Shown here: positions 9,019 to 24,375 of the stretch, in pieces | Layout: every line of letters starts with the position of its first letter | How positions within the stretch are numbered: position 1 is the first letter of the stretch | Virus record (IMG/VR): IMGVR_UViG_3300038443_000660 | Coordinates: 2,082 to 66,081 of that record | Source of the DNA: a virus | Taxonomy: Duplodnaviria > Heunggongvirae > Uroviricota > Caudoviricetes | Length of the DNA stretch: 64,000 bases | Direction: 5' to 3' (one strand) | Notes under the pieces: model-generated | The model's input: the letters and a program-made list of their open reading frames with translations, nothing else | Told to the model about the DNA's origin: nothing | Databases searched by the model: none | Translations under genes and position numbers: made by a program

Positions 9019-11002
9019 TAAATCAGAAAAGATTACTTTACCATCTCCACCTTTGACTGTGTGGGGACGGGATAGATTGCTTGACCAGCAAGAGTCTAAT
9101 AATGGCTCTCACACTTCTGATAAAGAAGCTTTGGCAGAAGAATTACGTAAGCAAAACAAAGAAGCTGTTCGTGAAATACTGGACGAGAATAAGGAAATAT
9201 TTTCTGATATTGTAGACCAATTTAAAGTCTATAGGGATTCGATGAAAAAATCCAATGAGAACTTTTTGGTAAAATTTGGCAAGATTATTGTATCCGATAT
9301 GCAAAAAAAGGCCACTGCATCATTGGTGCAAATGGCAGAAAATAATGATGAACAGATTGATGTTGCCGAAGAAACCAATCTGCGACTTAGACATATCAAT
9401 AACACTTTGAATAGACTTATTTCCCAAGTTATGGAATCTAATAAAATCTTGGAAAAGGGTGAAGAACGAGAAGAACAGAACGACAAAGAAGATAAACGGA
9501 AGAAAAAGAATAAAAAGGAAGATGAAACCGAAGAAAAGCGAGTAGGAAAGCTATATAAAATGATTTTCGGTAAAACACCCGCCGAAATCAGAGAAGAAAA
9601 AAATGCAGAATCTAAAGCCAAAGCTGGCCAAAGAGTCGGTGGATTACTTGGTGTTGGTGGTCTTGTTGAATCTGTTTTGGGCAGTCTTATCAAGTATGGT
9701 GCCTTGGCTGGTGTGGCAGGAACTATTCTAGGACAGGAAAATGTCGGTAAGCTGTTGGATAAGTTGTATCCTGTAGTTCTTGAATTGGTTGATAAAGTAT
9801 ATACAAATTTGTTAGAACCTATTCTTGTTCGTATGAAAGATGGATTGCTAAAATTAATGAAGGAAACTACCGACTCTTTAGGTAAATCATTACTTGGAGT
9901 TGATAGTTTATCTGAAAAGGTATCATCGTTTAATGATACACTAACAAGTATGGATACTGATAAGGATGGCCTTTTAGAAGGCGGCGAAATTATGGAATGG
10001 CTTGCAGGACGAGCAAAAAAGGCAGTAGAAGAAAATTTGTACAGAAAGCCTAAGAATAAGAATGATATCATAAATCTTTTTACCAAGACTCGTGAAGAAC
10101 GTTTGAAAGAACTTGAAGAAGAAAAAAACTTTCAAAAATATTTTGGAGACAAAGGCGAAAATGTTCATCAAGGGCCAGCGCTTAGAGGTCCATATAAAGG
10201 TAAAAATCATAGGCTAGAAGAATATAATCTGCAAAAATATTTTGGCACTGATGGAGAAAAGGTAACACAAGGTGGAACATCTAGAGCAAGTCATATAAAA
10301 CATGATTTGACTTCTGAATATACAACATTGCCCGAAAACAGAACTTATGAAGTACAGCCGGTATCGCCTTTCTTTGATGAACGTGTTGCTAAGGCACAAA
10401 TGGAATATGAAATCAGACAAGAATTTTTGAAAAAGCAATTGGCTAATAACGAAAAAAATACTGGAAAACAGATTAGCGCTGATTCATTACCTCCACCACC
10501 ACAGCAAAAAACACCACCAGATGCGACTCCTCAATACTCTCGTACTTGGGGAGATGTTTTCGATTCAATAAAACCAAGTGAAGAAACGATGAAAACTATG
10601 GGTATATTGACAGTAGCTACCCTTGCTTTTGCTGCATTAAAAAATCCTTCATTGGCATCGAAGCTACTAGGTGCTGGTCTTTTGGGGGCCACGATGGGCG
10701 AAGCATCGGCTTCTGAAAAGAGAAATGCCGTAACATCGATGTTTGGCCCAACGGTCCACGTTCAATCACAAGAGGAAGAAATTGGTAGTTATATCGGTGG
10801 GTTAGTCAAACCTCCTATTTCCGATAAAACAATCAAGATGAAAAAATCATCCGACCTTAATACTTCCAAAGGTTCGTCCCCTATTATCATCAACAAAAAT
10901 GATAATTCCAGAACTTCTATTAATTCTGTGAATAGTTCTGGCGGCGGGCGAGGTAATGACCTTCCCAGAACGAGAAATTCTCGACCAGCTTTCGGCAATT
11001 AG
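8990..11002 (+). CDS. Putative gp29-like baseplate hub/tape-measure protein
   Basis: 670 aa, helical and charged with Gly/Leu hydrophobic stretches, directly after gp26-gp51; assigned by synteny and composition. Confidence 0.55.
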   Translation: MSNEDNNSNSKSEKITLPSPPLTVWGRDRLLDQQESNNGSHTSDKEALAEELRKQNKEAVREILDENKEIFSDIVDQFKVYRDSMKKSNENFLVKFGKIIVSDMQKKATASLVQMAENNDEQIDVAEETNLRLRHINNTLNRLISQVMESNKILEKGEEREEQNDKEDKRKKKNKKEDETEEKRVGKLYKMIFGKTPAEIREEKNAESKAKAGQRVGGLLGVGGLVESVLGSLIKYGALAGVAGTILGQENVGKLLDKLYPVVLELVDKVYTNLLEPILVRMKDGLLKLMKETTDSLGKSLLGVDSLSEKVSSFNDTLTSMDTDKDGLLEGGEIMEWLAGRAKKAVEENLYRKPKNKNDIINLFTKTREERLKELEEEKNFQKYFGDKGENVHQGPALRGPYKGKNHRLEEYNLQKYFGTDGEKVTQGGTSRASHIKHDLTSEYTTLPENRTYEVQPVSPFFDERVAKAQMEYEIRQEFLKKQLANNEKNTGKQISADSLPPPPQQKTPPDATPQYSRTWGDVFDSIKPSEETMKTMGILTVATLAFAALKNPSLASKLLGAGLLGATMGEASASEKRNAVTSMFGPTVHVQSQEEEIGSYIGGLVKPPISDKTIKMKKSSDLNTSKGSSPIIINKNDNSRTSINSVNSSGGGRGNDLPRTRNSRPAFGN

Positions 11003-11008
11003 TATTAG

Positions 11009-11015
11009 CTAAATA
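11009..11015 (+). promoter_or_regulatory. Late promoter variant CTAAATA for gp2-terL
   Basis: Immediately upstream of the gp2 ATG. Confidence 0.45.
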
Positions 11016-11020
11016 CTTGT

Positions 11021-11641
11021 ATGAGTTCAAAAACTATACAACGAATTATGGAAGATGCGATTCGAAAGAATCAACTTTTCACAAGAAATGAAGAATCTAG
11101 GCGCTGGTTTTACGAGCGTACTAGGCGTACCAACATTAATTCTGCCCAATTTATTCGTGAATATGACCAATCTGATATGAGAACTACTTCTCAAATACAA
11201 ATTGGCTGTATGTATTGTTTTTTGTATGACCCTAAATGGAAAGATGAACTTCCGTATTACGATAGATTTCCATTGATTTTTATTACTGATACATGGGTTG
11301 ATAAAAGTGGAAAAGCACATTTCGCAGGCATCAATATGCATTACCTCCCTTATAAGCAACGTGCCGCTTTGATGGATGCTTTACTTGATTTGCAAAATAA
11401 TACGACAATACTTTCAAATAAGAAACTGTTGATTTCATATGGTATTATGAAAAAGGCAGCAACATCAAAATGGTTTGCTCCTACATATAAACGATATTTG
11501 AAAAACCATGTTAGATCGAGATTAGTCAAGATTCCATATGAAGAATGGATAATTGCTTCACTCATGCCCGTAGCAGAATTTTCTAAAGCTTCTCAAAAAG
11601 ATGTGTGGAAGGATTCGTTAAAGAAGACTAAAGGTAGATAG
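11021..11641 (+). CDS. gp2: DNA end-protector protein gp2
   Basis: IGCMYCFLYDPKWKDELPYYDRFPLIF...GINMHYLP...KRYLKNHVRS...W..A..MP. Confidence 0.92.
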   Translation: MSSKTIQRIMEDAIRKNQLFTRNEESRRWFYERTRRTNINSAQFIREYDQSDMRTTSQIQIGCMYCFLYDPKWKDELPYYDRFPLIFITDTWVDKSGKAHFAGINMHYLPYKQRAALMDALLDLQNNTTILSNKKLLISYGIMKKAATSKWFAPTYKRYLKNHVRSRLVKIPYEEWIIASLMPVAEFSKASQKDVWKDSLKKTKGR

Positions 11642-11646
11642 TATAA

Positions 11647-12036
11647 ATGGCATATAATGGTATTCCTTATCTTAGAGGACCGAATGAAGCGATAGATTAT
11701 GACTTAACCATGCGTGAAGAACTTCGTAAATGTGCGAAGTCATACAAATACTTTGTTGAAAATTACATTAAAATTGACGACAATTCTGGTTCTCTTAAGG
11801 TAATTCAGCTTTACGATTATCAAAAAAATCTTCTAAACATCGTCCATAACAATAAAATGACCGTCTGTAAGTTCCCTCGGCAATGCGGTAAGTGCTTGAA
11901 ATATAACACTAATTTGGAATTAAAAAATACCGGGGAAATTCATAAATTAGATGAATCGCTAAATAGAAATGAAACAATAACCATTTCTATTGGAGATTTA
12001 TTTGAACAAGCAAAGGCTGCATATAAGAAAGTGTAA
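11647..12036 (+). CDS. gp17: Terminase large subunit, N-extein (82 aa) fused to split-intein N-fragment
   Basis: ELRKCAKSYKYFVENY...LYDYQK...KFPRQCGK followed by intein block A CLKYNT, then TAA. Confidence 0.92.
   Translation: MAYNGIPYLRGPNEAIDYDLTMREELRKCAKSYKYFVENYIKIDDNSGSLKVIQLYDYQKNLLNIVHNNKMTVCKFPRQCGKCLKYNTNLELKNTGEIHKLDESLNRNETITISIGDLFEQAKAAYKKV
11893..12033 (+). mobile_element. Split intein N-fragment (47 aa)
   Basis: Begins at Cys right after Walker A GK; ends ITISIGDLFEQ, resembling atypical TerL IntN fragments. Confidence 0.88.
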
Positions 12037-12805
12037 GATATGTGACGTAGTGTTTGATGCACATCGAAAATTACAAATTATTTGTACGAATCCAGAATGT
12101 CGTCGTCAATTTAATTTGAATAACATTGCAGACAAAGTGAAACAAAAAAATAACAAGAAATTTGAAAATTCTATAAAGGATGAAGATTATGTTGAATGTT
12201 TATATTGTGGATTAAAGGCGAGAGATTTAACGAAACATATTTTTAATATACATAAAATTCCTGTTTGTGAATATACGGGAAAAACAAGGTGTGACAATTA
12301 TTTAAATAAACAGTCAGAAAGAATAAGGGGAAATAAAAATCCTGCTTACAATCATGGGGGAAAACTTTCACCGTTTTCGAAAAAGTTCATATACGCTGAC
12401 ACGGTAGATTTATCTTCGATTTATAATGTGGGGTCTATTAGTTCTAAAATTGAGCGACAATTTTCAAGAAGATTAAGCAGTGTCCTTCCCAATATACAGA
12501 AACAGTTCTTTTTAAAGATAGATACTGGATTTTTTATATATGACATTAAGTATTGTAATAAAATCATCGAGTTCAATGGTGATTATTGGCATATGAATCC
12601 AAATAAATATCCGGCGAAAACTATTTTTAGACATATTTCTAAAAGTGACGAAGTTATATTGGCAGAAGATGTGTGGAAAAAGGATAAAGTTAAAATACAA
12701 GTTGCGAAAACTAATGGGTATGAAGTTATGATTGTGTGGGAACACGATTATCGTAAAAATAAAGAAGAAACTATAAAGAAATGCTTAAACTTTCTGACAG
12801 CATAG
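12002..12805 (+). mobile_element. Free-standing Vsr-like (PD-(D/E)xK) homing endonuclease with N-terminal Zn-finger motifs
   Basis: CKIC..CTNPEC, CLYC...H...H; C-term YDIKY..KIIEFNGDYWH...D..K...A...GYEV..VWEHD; GGAG-6nt-TTG at 12002; lies in the +1 frame relative to both terL halves. Confidence 0.85.
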
Positions 12806-13149
12806 AACGAAAATTTGTCGAATCTTATCCTTGTGAAGTAGATGTTAAAACTGACACAGGATGGGAAAAATCAGTAATGATTCATAAAACCATACCTTAT
12901 GAAGTGTGGGAACTTCATTTAGAAGATGGAAAAATGTTGGAATGTGCAGATGACCATATCGTTTTTACTGAAAATTTAGAAGAAGTTTTTGTCAAAAATC
13001 TTCATGAAACTGCTTACGTAATGACAGAAGATGGTCCCAAAATGGTAACTTCTGTTAAGAATACAGGCAAATATGAAAATATGTACGATTTAGAATTAAA
13101 TGATGGTTCGTTTCATAGATATTATACAAACGGTATTCTTTCCCATAAT
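12781..13149 (+). mobile_element. Split intein C-fragment (123 aa)
   Basis: Block B CADDHIV, block F MYDLEL, block G YYTNGILSHN followed by Thr+1. Confidence 0.92.
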
Positions 13150-14496
13150 ACAACCTCTATGGCCTGTTATATTGTGTGGTGTATTATTTTTCGTAAAAGA
13201 TACAAGGTTGGTGTTGCTGCCGATAAGGACGAGACGGCGCTGGAAATTATCGACCGTATCAAGACTGCATATGAAGGGCTTCCATACTGGATGCAGCAAG
13301 GCGTCAAAAAATGGGACGCTCACAAGGTTCTGTTGGAAAATGGTTCTAAGGTGGATGCTTCTGCTACTACCAAGAAAACGTTCCGTGGTAAAACATACAA
13401 TTTAGTTCTTCTAGACGAATTTGCGTTCGTGGACCAGAACATCGCTGACCCTTTTTTTACTTCAATTTACCCTACGGTTTCCAAGTCTGACCCAACCATT
13501 CCGATTCCATTACAGACAAAGATGGTTATCATCTCTACTCCTAATGGATTGAACCACTTTCATAAATTATATGATGATGCTGATAAAGGAAAATCTGATT
13601 TCAAGGCTGTTGAAATTAGATGGAATGATGTTCCCGGTCGTGACGATAAATTTAAAGAAGCTACGTTAAGAAATATTGGCGAAGATCGGTGGGAACAAGA
13701 ATACAACGGCAGCTTTCTTGGTTCGTCCACTTCTCTTGTCCCTGCATCTAAACTGAAAACGTTGGTATTTTCAGAACCAAGGGAATCATTACAAGATATC
13801 TCTATCTGGAAACCACCAGTACAAGGACATACTTATTTTATTTCCTGTGACGTATGCCAAGGTAAGGGATTGGACTATCACGCCGCTTCTGTTATTGACA
13901 TTACCGCTGTCCCATATGAAGTGGTAGCCAATTTTCATAACAATACGTTGGATACGATGATGTATCCATCTGTAATATTTGAGTTGGCTAAGAAATATAA
14001 TGAGGCTTTTGTGCTAATCGAGTTGAATAACAATGGTAAGCAAGTTTCGGATATTCTATACTATGAATTAGAATATGAAAATGTTCTATCAACCATGACT
14101 AGAGGTAGAGCCGGTCAAGTTTTGACGGTTGAATCATCGACCGCTAAAGGCGTTACTATGACCAAACCGGTCAAATCGACCGGTTGTTCCAATTTGAAAT
14201 CGTTGATTATGTCTGACCAACTTATCTTGAATGATCACAAATATTTGAAAGAATTGTCAACATTCTCCATTCAAGGTGGACAATACAAGGCCGAAAACGG
14301 TTCTCATGACGATATGGTTATGAGTCTAGTCACATTTTCATGGGCGACTACAGAAACATATTTTGCTGACCTTCTGGATGTCAATATTCGTCAAGAATTG
14401 TTCGAACAAAGAATCAAGCAACTTGAGGAAGATTTGATTCCTTTTGGTGTTCTTGGCAACATGGCGGCGGAAGACGAAGACGAATTGATGTTCTAA
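12781..14496 (+). CDS. gp17: Split-intein C-fragment (123 aa) fused to terminase large subunit C-extein
   Basis: ...ILSHN/TTSMACY...RGKTYNLVLLDEFAF...IISTPNGLNHF...WEQEYNGSF...DVCQGKGLDY...HDDMVMSL. Confidence 0.95.
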   Translation: MLKLSDSIERKFVESYPCEVDVKTDTGWEKSVMIHKTIPYEVWELHLEDGKMLECADDHIVFTENLEEVFVKNLHETAYVMTEDGPKMVTSVKNTGKYENMYDLELNDGSFHRYYTNGILSHNTTSMACYIVWCIIFRKRYKVGVAADKDETALEIIDRIKTAYEGLPYWMQQGVKKWDAHKVLLENGSKVDASATTKKTFRGKTYNLVLLDEFAFVDQNIADPFFTSIYPTVSKSDPTIPIPLQTKMVIISTPNGLNHFHKLYDDADKGKSDFKAVEIRWNDVPGRDDKFKEATLRNIGEDRWEQEYNGSFLGSSTSLVPASKLKTLVFSEPRESLQDISIWKPPVQGHTYFISCDVCQGKGLDYHAASVIDITAVPYEVVANFHNNTLDTMMYPSVIFELAKKYNEAFVLIELNNNGKQVSDILYYELEYENVLSTMTRGRAGQVLTVESSTAKGVTMTKPVKSTGCSNLKSLIMSDQLILNDHKYLKELSTFSIQGGQYKAENGSHDDMVMSLVTFSWATTETYFADLLDVNIRQELFEQRIKQLEEDLIPFGVLGNMAAEDEDELMF

Positions 14497-14675
14497 TTGA
14501 ACCAAGTCACTCTTGCCATCAACACGGATTTATCCGTATCTTTCATGGCTTCCGCTTTCTTTTCCGTAGGACCATGCCAGTGGAACGTGTATTCCATTTT
14601 GTTCTTGTTTAGATAGTAGATAAGATTATCAAGCTTTTCAATATTCTTATTGGTGAAGGTTCGAATCTGGTGCAT
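14493..14675 (-). CDS. Hypothetical protein
   Basis: 60 aa, convergent with terL. Confidence 0.5.
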   Translation of the reverse strand: MHQIRTFTNKNIEKLDNLIYYLNKNKMEYTFHWHGPTEKKAEAMKDTDKSVLMARVTWFN

Positions 14676-15069
14676 TTTGACCTGTATTGATTATAGCTAC
14701 GGTTTTAGTGCCTGCATTATTGTAGGCAGCAAATTTTTCAAAGAATAGTCCCGAAAATGTAGCCATTTGGGCTACAAAGAATGATTTTATCGTTATATCT
14801 TCAAAGGGACAATCATCGTCAACCATTATTCCTATAGCAGTATTATCTTCATCTTGCAATGAAAAAAATGTAAAATCAATGTCTTTTTGAATAGAATTAC
14901 AGTTCTTTATAGTTCCGAGAATACCTTTTTCGATTATAGGAACTACACGGTCATCTTTGCCAGAATATTCGGCAATGATAATTACTCGCTTGTTATTGTA
15001 CTGTTGTAGAGTTTTCATGTATTTGGTATTGCTTTTATTTGTTTTCTTAGGCATATACTTGCACTCCAA
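14647..15069 (-). CDS. Hypothetical protein
   Basis: 140 aa; start uncertain. Confidence 0.55.
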   Translation of the reverse strand: MECKYMPKKTNKSNTKYMKTLQQYNNKRVIIIAEYSGKDDRVVPIIEKGILGTIKNCNSIQKDIDFTFFSLQDEDNTAIGIMVDDDCPFEDITIKSFFVAQMATFSGLFFEKFAAYNNAGTKTVAIINTGQNAPDSNLHQ

Positions 15070-23958: not shown

Positions 23959-24375
23959 TTATACTGTGTCGATACAAAGAACATTAATGTTTTTTGCTTG
24001 TGTTTTTTTCTTTAACATATCGAGGGTCACATTCGAATACATGATATTATCACAAATAATCCATTCTACATTTACACCATCGTATTTTCTATTCATGTAA
24101 CTTTGAACAGAAGATGTAAGAATATTTGGTGTAACTAATTTTTCTTTAATGAATTCACTCTGGATTCTTTTTGCGGTGTCTGTGTTATATGTCAGGAACA
24201 ACACAGTACCATTTCTTGCTTTTTCGGTAGCAAAAGATTTCAGAAATGTAGTTACTCCAATTTGTCTAGGTAATTTATATGACCAAAAGGTTTGACCATA
24301 ATTTTCTTTTTCCCAAATAATCTTGTTTTGGATAGCAGAAAAAATATCTACTACTCTATCTTTTACAACTATCAT
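23959..24375 (-). CDS. Stand-alone terminase-ATPase-like domain with degenerate Walker A and B
   Basis: KLPRQIGVTT vs this phage's TerL KFPRQCGKTT; YDGVNVEWIICDN vs FRGKTYNLVLLDE; VLCIDT vs MVIIST. Confidence 0.72.
   Translation of the reverse strand: MIVVKDRVVDIFSAIQNKIIWEKENYGQTFWSYKLPRQIGVTTFLKSFATEKARNGTVLFLTYNTDTAKRIQSEFIKEKLVTPNILTSSVQSYMNRKYDGVNVEWIICDNIMYSNVTLDMLKKKTQAKNINVLCIDTV

Follow-up and report, generated by a model that had tools for sequence, protein, structure and literature searches.

Fractured genes, in which a free-standing endonuclease gene on the same strand separates the two halves of a split intein within one host gene, were described by Dassa, London, Stoddard, Schueler-Furman, and Pietrokovski in 2009, and the loci listed in that report include a gp17-like terminase locus from Lake Gatun (PMC2677866). 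Vsr-like endonucleases were assigned to about half of those loci, and gp41-1, gp41-8, IMPDH-1, and NrdJ-1 are named there among five fully assembled pairs (PMC2677866). Another break, designated S2 and located after helix alpha-1, has been described for the AceL and GOS inteins of the large terminase subunit TerL (PMC13014065). Analysis of a 64,000-nucleotide (nt) stretch of DNA from a tailed phage of the class Caudoviricetes (positions 2,082 to 66,081 of IMG/VR virus record IMGVR_UViG_3300038443_000660; hereafter the window) revealed a TerL gene carried in two pieces around an endonuclease gene, and we consider it very likely that this fractured gene is real and dependent on splicing, with a mobile cassette lodged in its Walker A codons. 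The gp41-1, gp41-8, IMPDH-1, and NrdJ-1 inteins are split at the canonical site. The split-TerL layout has been known since 2009, terminase included, and is very common in metagenomes, and S2 is not a new site; judged by sequence, the window intein differs from the characterized AceL, GOS, and Cat inteins in its subfamily, its Thr at position +1, and an insertion in its N-terminal fragment (IntN).

The split TerL gene and its intein

The two TerL pieces are encoded by open reading frames (ORFs) 1 and 3, which lie in the same frame (frame 1) and are separated by ~37 stop codons of all three kinds, so that no read-through or alternative genetic code can join the halves (Table 1). Upstream of the ATG of the C-terminal intein fragment (IntC) the frame is open for six codons only. 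Residues 3–82 of the N-extein aligned to residues 87–166 of T4 gp17 (PDB 3ezk), ending in ...RQLGK (E 2e-10), and matched the terminase large subunit family phrog_5989 (1e-16). Residues 1–412 of the C-extein aligned to gp17 residues 167–566, starting with TT (E 1.6e-67), and gave Pfam matches to Terminase_6N and Terminase_6C. The extein junction therefore corresponds to K166|T167 of gp17, between the Walker A Lys (GK) and Thr (TT), with no residue lost or duplicated, and the exteins joined amount to 530 amino acids (aa). Intein-free relatives with 71–74% identity (P0122, P0123, and P0126) contain an uninterrupted PRQCGKTTSMA. No second TerL was found in the complete genome, so DNA packaging should depend on rejoining of the halves.

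These observations agree in large part with a first-pass annotation of the window, in which TerL was read as ending in PRQCGK followed by a 47-aa, Cys-initiated IntN and TAA, with blocks B, F, and G and the remainder of TerL in a second ORF with its own Met; the sequences of ORF1 and ORF3 confirm both, and the 530-aa enzyme with a restored PRQCGK-TT that was expected from splicing is matched by the gp17 alignments at K166|T167. The intein had also been called atypically split, in accordance with its S2 site, which it shares with the AceL-, GOS-, and Cat-TerL inteins, and the suggested dependence of packaging on trans-splicing gains support from the sole TerL of the 242-kb genome. The locus had been described correctly as to its two halves, and the endonuclease ORF between them had been left out.

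The intein carries the features of class 1, including Cys1, the block B H59, the block F D103, H122-N123, and Thr+1, and the insert is missing from homologues while the exteins abut exactly. Window IntC retains every position that is invariant in its family (A56, D57, H59, D103, H122, and N123), and the usual Thr or Ser of block B is replaced by Ala throughout the whole intein family. In an alignment of window IntN with 36 family IntN sequences, Cys1 was invariant and the IGxFY helix was conserved. A profile of the IntC family searched against the PDB matched VidaL (2e-12), gp41-1 (5e-11), CatC (7e-9), and NrdJ-1 (5e-6). The split lies at S2, after helix alpha-1 and before block B, with the TAA following ...ISIGDLFEQAKAAYKKV, and CatC from residues 12–16 on aligned with IntC from residues 16–19 on; as in other S2 split inteins, there are two separately translated halves, and IntC has its own ATG and contains block B. 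The 47 aa of IntN exceed the 15–37 aa published for atypically split inteins (PMC13014065), and neither the close sequence nor the Cys+1 that would indicate kinship with AceL and Cat was present.

A loop insertion of 12 aa, with a short tail in addition, accounts for the unusual length of IntN. The insertion (approximately KLDESLNRNETI) lies in the beta-hairpin between CLKYNTNLELKNTGEI and ISIGDLFEQ, where the alignment also shows a 2-residue deletion; none of the 36 aligned relatives has such an insertion, and IntN without it would measure 35 aa. A model of the IntN-IntC complex reached an ipSAE of 0.80 compared to 0.00 for the best control and passed a mark attained by 58 of 80 solved complexes and 2 of 110 mismatched pairs. 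Three runs shared at least 98% of contacts, and the partner had a predicted local distance difference test (pLDDT) value of 71–73. Contacts to IntC were predicted for IntN residues 1–11, 13, 28, and 33–44 and for none of residues 14–27 and 29–32, and T28 was the only insertion residue among the confident contacts, suggesting that the insertion probably forms a protruding loop in the protein. Because similar complexes have been solved (Cat, PDB 6dsl), the model speaks for a likeness to them and is no proof that the window copy binds.

Table 1. Positions within the window of the split TerL gene, its intein and endonuclease, and the adjoining upstream gene.
Feature	Position	Strand	Description
gp2-like DNA end protector gene	11021-11641	+	Upstream of ORF1-3; phrog_429, 2e-47
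ORF1	11647-12036	+	129 aa: 82-aa TerL N-extein (...KFPRQCGK), 47-aa IntN, TAA at 12034
TerL N-extein	11647..11892	+	82 aa, ends in first half of Walker A (PRQCGK)
IntN	11893..12036	+	47 aa (Cys1 ... KKV) and TAA; block A CLKYNT; helix motif ISIGDLFEQ
Cys1 codon of IntN	11893-11895	+	Directly after ...QCGK
IntN insertion	11944..11979	+	36 nt, 12 aa (about KLDESLNRNETI), in IntN beta-hairpin
RNA hairpin	11947..12005	+	23 pairs, 10-nt loop
ORF2	12002..12805, frame 2	+	Free-standing Vsr-like (I-Bth0305I-type) homing endonuclease gene; 267 aa from TTG 12002
ORF3	12781-14496	+	571 aa, own ATG: 123-aa IntC and 448-aa TerL C-extein
Endonuclease/IntC overlap	12781..12805	+	25 nt; KKCLNFLTA* and MLKLSDSI from the same bases in two frames
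IntC	12781..13149	+	123 aa (MLKLSDSIERKF ... NGILSHN); blocks B (CADDH), F (NMYDLEL), G (SHN)
TerL C-extein	13150..14496	+	448 aa from Thr+1 (TTSMACY...); rest of ATPase domain and nuclease domain

The intein family in metagenomes

Searches with IntC returned 519 clusters from a 90%-identity collection (in the searched length range of 314–1000 aa), and among the 120 matches listed most began at their own residue 1 aligned to IntC residue 1. In a library of 1.84 billion representatives, 846 proteins were found at E<=1e-3 and 511 at E<=1e-10; for the best 145 newly returned representatives, IntC was at the protein N-terminus in 110 and the +1 residue was Thr in 90, Ser in 53, and Cys in none. 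The host proteins of the family include TerL, SbcC-like ATPases, ClpX-like AAA proteins, and DnaB helicases.

At least 546 loci of the family are present in IMG/VR, and their anatomy was counted on the best 80. Approximately 66 of these have a credible upstream ORF ending in GK|C...stop, and three further upstream pattern matches of 15–16 aa seem spurious or truncated. Family IntN fragments have a median of 37 aa (range 31–77 aa), and the earlier suggestion that the long IntN and the 47/123 split pointed to something novel is not upheld, S2 being a known site. In about 50 of the loci, a gap of 0.86–1.6 kb is filled by an ORF on the same strand whose end lies ~22 nt beyond the IntC ATG, and most of these gap ORFs carry the Vsr-like nuclease motif E[FY]xGxxWH ... 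VWExDY ... KC(I/L)xFL. The gap ORFs match window ORF2 (blastp E down to 1e-30), identifying the S2 position as the endonuclease site of the intein family. The halves are adjacent, with a gap of <60 nt and no endonuclease, in eight loci, and a few have contiguous inteins or an endonuclease fused in frame. Among the latter, L051 (3473–5659) encodes a contiguous family intein with a linker of ~45 aa, L040 and L043 (2813–5659) have an in-frame insert of ~265 aa at the S2 position, and L058 (2876–5974) has a Vsr-like endonuclease fused in frame to IntC; compared by sequence, the four appear as a graded series from contiguous to split forms.

The endonuclease gene

The window locus has the arrangement by which fractured genes were defined in 2009, a same-strand, free-standing endonuclease ORF between the split-intein halves of one host gene, and ORF2 overlaps both halves. 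Its frame is open from 11990 to 12805, with alternative starts at TTG 11990 and GTG 12050 (267–271 aa). The product has a CxxC...CxxxxC motif in its N-terminal part as well as a Ros/MucR-like zinc finger, and its nuclease domain (IIEFNGDYWH ... VWEHDY) is C-terminal. It matched phrog_22677 (2e-18) and, weakly, the Pfam families ROS_MUCR (4e-4) and MTES_1575 (5e-3). An AlphaFold model had a mean pLDDT of 81, exceeding 90 in the nuclease domain, and its best PDB folds were I-Bth0305I (3r3p; TMt 0.71, probability 1.0) and Vsr (1cw0; TMt 0.56, probability 1.0). Fold and motif are thus of the Vsr type, with weak Foldseek E-values (8.5e-3) that are attributable to the use of the whole two-domain model as the query. 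E194, G197, W200, H201, and E251 were conserved across 29 endonuclease sequences. The GC content of 0.29–0.32 across the insert compared to 0.38–0.45 in the C-extein suggests that the insert is of foreign origin.

The coding sequences of endonuclease and intein are tightly interlocked at both ends. The ATG of the relatives' endonuclease aligns with the window TTG at 12002, and the IntN codons GGA GAx TTT TAT GAA of the relatives, shifted by one base, give ...GGAGA...ATG, placing the endonuclease start within the codons of the IGDLF helix. Downstream, the IntC ATG sits within the Lys-Cys codons of the endonuclease C-terminus, and the near-invariant Cys of the KC(I/L)xFL end supplies the TG of that ATG. 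Most loci of the family show such an overlap, of ~22 nt, together with the KC(I/L)xFL end. The hairpin formed by the IntN insertion adds to this interlock.

The RNA hairpin within the IntN coding sequence

The hairpin had a minimum free energy of -19.5 kcal/mol (z score -5.5), and none of 200 shuffled sequences was as stable. It contains a perfect 10-nt inverted repeat (11962–11971 and 11982–11991). The 36-nt insertion makes up its 5' arm and most of its loop, and the 3' arm consists of the conserved IGDLF helix codons and includes GGAG (11992–11995) and the endonuclease TTG start (12002–12004). The same region in 43 relatives gave a median z of -0.95, with 10 of the 43 below -2, and the window hairpin is exceptional among its relatives. 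At the IntC start, no RNA structure was found (z +0.95), and the leader is A-rich and open like those of most window genes. The insertion and its hairpin may throttle or time translation of the endonuclease, a proposal that we put forward tentatively. Somewhat more doubtful is the combined proposition that the insertion is the footprint of a 36-nt RNA element silencing or timing the endonuclease and that the intein stands within a very large clade of S2-split inteins directed at the GK|T/S of the Walker A motif in numerous phage ATPases (TerL, SbcC-like, ClpX-like, and DnaB), with Thr or Ser always at +1.

A late promoter inside the hairpin was also considered and rejected, as the CTAAATA at 11959–11965, which resembles TATAAATA, shows no enrichment across the window (9 found compared to 10.9 expected). 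Nor was TATAAATA enriched in the window (8 found, 6.2 expected), and a scan of positions 10900–14800 for sigma-70 promoters and terminators gave no excess over shuffled sequences and none between the TerL halves. The CTAAATA copies at 11009, 15778, 25749, 32795, and 50941 lie in the right orientation 3–15 nt upstream of five ORF starts, including that of gp2, and the heptamer could belong to a signal that the phage uses for late promoters or start sites.

Proposed mechanism and alternative explanations

According to the proposed mechanism, a mobile cassette consisting of IntN, the Vsr-like endonuclease gene, and IntC would have been inserted between the codons of the Walker A Lys and Thr, and in the phage ORF1 would be translated into N-extein-IntN (129 aa) and ORF3, as a separate polypeptide, into IntC-C-extein (571 aa). 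The short IntN would dock into a largely pre-formed IntC and complete the class 1 HINT fold, and Cys1, the block B His, the block F Asp, the terminal His-Asn, and Thr+1 would perform trans-splicing, leaving a TerL of 530 aa in which the PRQCGKTT P-loop is whole. At the RNA level, the 36-nt insertion would fold back on the ribosome-binding region and TTG start of the endonuclease gene and throttle or time its translation.

Several points weigh against this mechanism. Trans-splicing of the window TerL halves is a prediction from sequence and from the docking model, and the unique IntN insertion could impair docking, as the model leaves it largely unplaced. The endonuclease has a non-ATG start (TTG) and is without a central module of ~100–120 aa (CIEKYGEE...RQxKW) found in 28 of 28 aligned relatives; together with the sequestering hairpin, these traits indicate that it may be attenuated or decaying, in which case the hairpin may be incidental. 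The 267-codon open frame in DNA of ~30% GC implies that the endonuclease is not long dead. With regard to the hairpin, a strong Shine-Dalgarno core precedes just 9 of 48 window genes, and the GGAG may for that reason matter little in the host. Finally, the runs containing the locus were flagged as possible source samples of the window and are not fully independent of it, and the evidence from them consists of contigs, not raw reads.

It is very improbable that IntN and IntC no longer splice and that their association holds the TerL fragments together non-covalently. Such an arrangement has a parallel in the split NrdA of phage Aeh1, described as kept in association by sequences that a mobile element left behind (PMC3045599), and the unique insertion of window IntN would suit it. 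In TerL, however, the break falls inside the P-loop (GK|TT), where phosphate binding needs a continuous backbone, and every catalytic residue of the intein family is kept. The prospect that two programmed frameshifts produce one continuous precursor, with a cis-splicing intein and an embedded endonuclease, can hardly be credited. The shared frame of ORF1 and ORF3, the overlaps at both junctions, and the relatives with an endonuclease-IntC fusion (L058) or contiguous inteins (L051 and L040) are in its favor. Against it, two independent shifts would be required and no slippery site is evident, the family conserves both the IntC ATG and the start of the endonuclease in their role as starts, and the first of the two junctions lies under the hairpin.

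That the gene is dead, in a phage that is defective or does not replicate, or that the locus arose as an artefact of assembly or sequencing, is likewise highly improbable, although the locus is known from metagenomic contigs only and contigs from one soil run break within it (see below). The window is part of a 242,456-base pair (bp) IMG/VR virus record with direct terminal repeats that is rated 100% complete. The identical 571-aa ORF3 product was found on 10 contigs, including assemblies of other runs, and among the contigs listed with this product the same 129-aa and 251/267-aa genes were found upstream. All sampled words of positions 11600–13300 were contained in seven soil or rhizosphere runs, with no RNA run among those listed, and Logan contigs of two of the seven (depths of 43.5 and 52.2) cover these positions with 0 differences and 0 gaps. 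The first-pass annotation had named an assembly error as one finding that would overturn it; on this point, the unchanged contigs at 43.5x and 52.2x are reassuring, and their value is reduced by being contigs of possible source samples rather than raw reads. The shared contigs and zero-difference spans, taken with that limit, make an assembly artefact at the locus unlikely. Further arguments for a living gene are that all three ORFs are open in ~30% GC DNA and that the architecture is that of hundreds of independent loci.

Turnover at the P-loop and genomic context

Close relatives of the phage show the same P-loop in other states, either empty or occupied by a different intein. In P0121 (L085:3701–5701), the exteins are 98% identical to those of the window and the flanking DNA is ~84–86% identical, and a different, contiguous 139-aa intein that starts with Pro lies three residues upstream (PRQ|...SN|CGKTT). 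A homologue of this intein is the DnaB intein of PDB 6bs8 (1.4e-16), which we take to be the class 3 Mycobacterium smegmatis DnaB intein. Compared to the window, P0121 indicates that inteins unrelated to one another occupy this P-loop in close relatives. An intein of the P0121 kind is also present in P0125. In P0124, GK is followed by an insert that contains LAGLIDADG, and the P-loop is empty in three relatives.

The source type of the phage was soil/rhizosphere. In run X8, a low-depth soil sample (3.6–4.8x), the contigs end at 11895, in the Cys1 codon, and begin again at 12754, a position 27 nt short of IntC; the run has both exteins and IntC, and the gap could reflect low coverage or a co-existing allele with another IntN and endonuclease segment. 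A second copy of the intein or the endonuclease was not found in the genome, and a phage GenBank collection gave distant TerL matches only, with no relative carrying the same locus. GGAG, GAGG, or AGGA were the cores found upstream of the nine window genes mentioned above, and leaders are A-rich; the few Shine-Dalgarno cores and the ~35% GC content hint at a host making little use of Shine-Dalgarno sequences (e.g., Bacteroidota) rather than a rhizobial one. For an ORF on the minus strand (23959–24375), a reading as a dead terminase ATPase gained no support from BLASTP against an intein-free TerL relative, which gave E 11 with just a short PRQ.G.TT-like string aligned.

Implications

For phage biology, the locus is a routine but clean case, in a complete genome, of an essential packaging motor gene that would depend on protein trans-splicing. 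Protein engineering could draw from the family many natural pairs with a short IntN, in which the +1 residue is Thr or Ser and not the Cys of AceL, GOS, and Cat. The window pair is not an obvious choice for this purpose, as its IntN is longer than the family norm. If the combined proposition on the RNA element and the clade is true, an intein would tolerate a loop insertion in order to control its own endonuclease, and a clade for which no biochemical characterization was found could give short-IntN splicing tools needing no Cys+1.

Comparison with known systems

The C-terminal domain of the endonuclease has its best folds in I-Bth0305I (3r3p) and Escherichia coli Vsr (1cw0), and the family as a whole has the ExxGxxWH motif; a PDB search with the endonuclease sequence gave no significant match to 3r3p or 1cw0. 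The window endonuclease differs from I-Bth0305I and Vsr in that zinc-finger modules make up its N-terminal half, and the central module seen in its relatives is absent. In T4, RNA hairpins hide the start of late genes and homing endonuclease genes (e.g., I-TevI, soc, and e). The window hairpin, likewise from a T4-like phage, resembles them in that its stem lies over the ribosome-binding region and start codon of a gene for a homing endonuclease, and differs in that no internal promoter is supported and the CTAAATA of its 5' arm is not enriched.

Among solved structures, VidaL (6vgv) and gp41-1 (6qaz), both phage-type mini-inteins, are the closest in sequence to the family profile. VidaL differs in being split at S1, after beta-2, with a 16-aa IntN, and gp41-1 is canonically split. 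As in the fractured genes of the 2009 report, the intein halves of the window lie on two ORFs in a phage setting with a same-strand endonuclease gene between them, the reading frames overlap, and a hairpin precedes the endonuclease ORF (PMC2677866). The window intein is split at S2, unlike the four pairs of that report named above, and the 5' arm of its hairpin lies inside the IntN coding sequence.

The AceL-, GOS-, and consensus Cat-TerL inteins (Cat, PDB 6dsl) share with the window the TerL host, the short IntN, the long IntC with blocks B, F, and G, and the S2 split, and are related to it in sequence only distantly (single-sequence E 1.8e-3, profile E 7e-9). The +1 residue is Thr in the window and Thr or Ser in its family compared to Cys in AceL-, GOS-, and Cat-TerL, and IntN measures 47 aa compared to 25, 37, and 30 aa, respectively. 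The window intein is accordingly predicted to work like the AceL, GOS, and Cat inteins, yet its sequence assigns it to a different subfamily.

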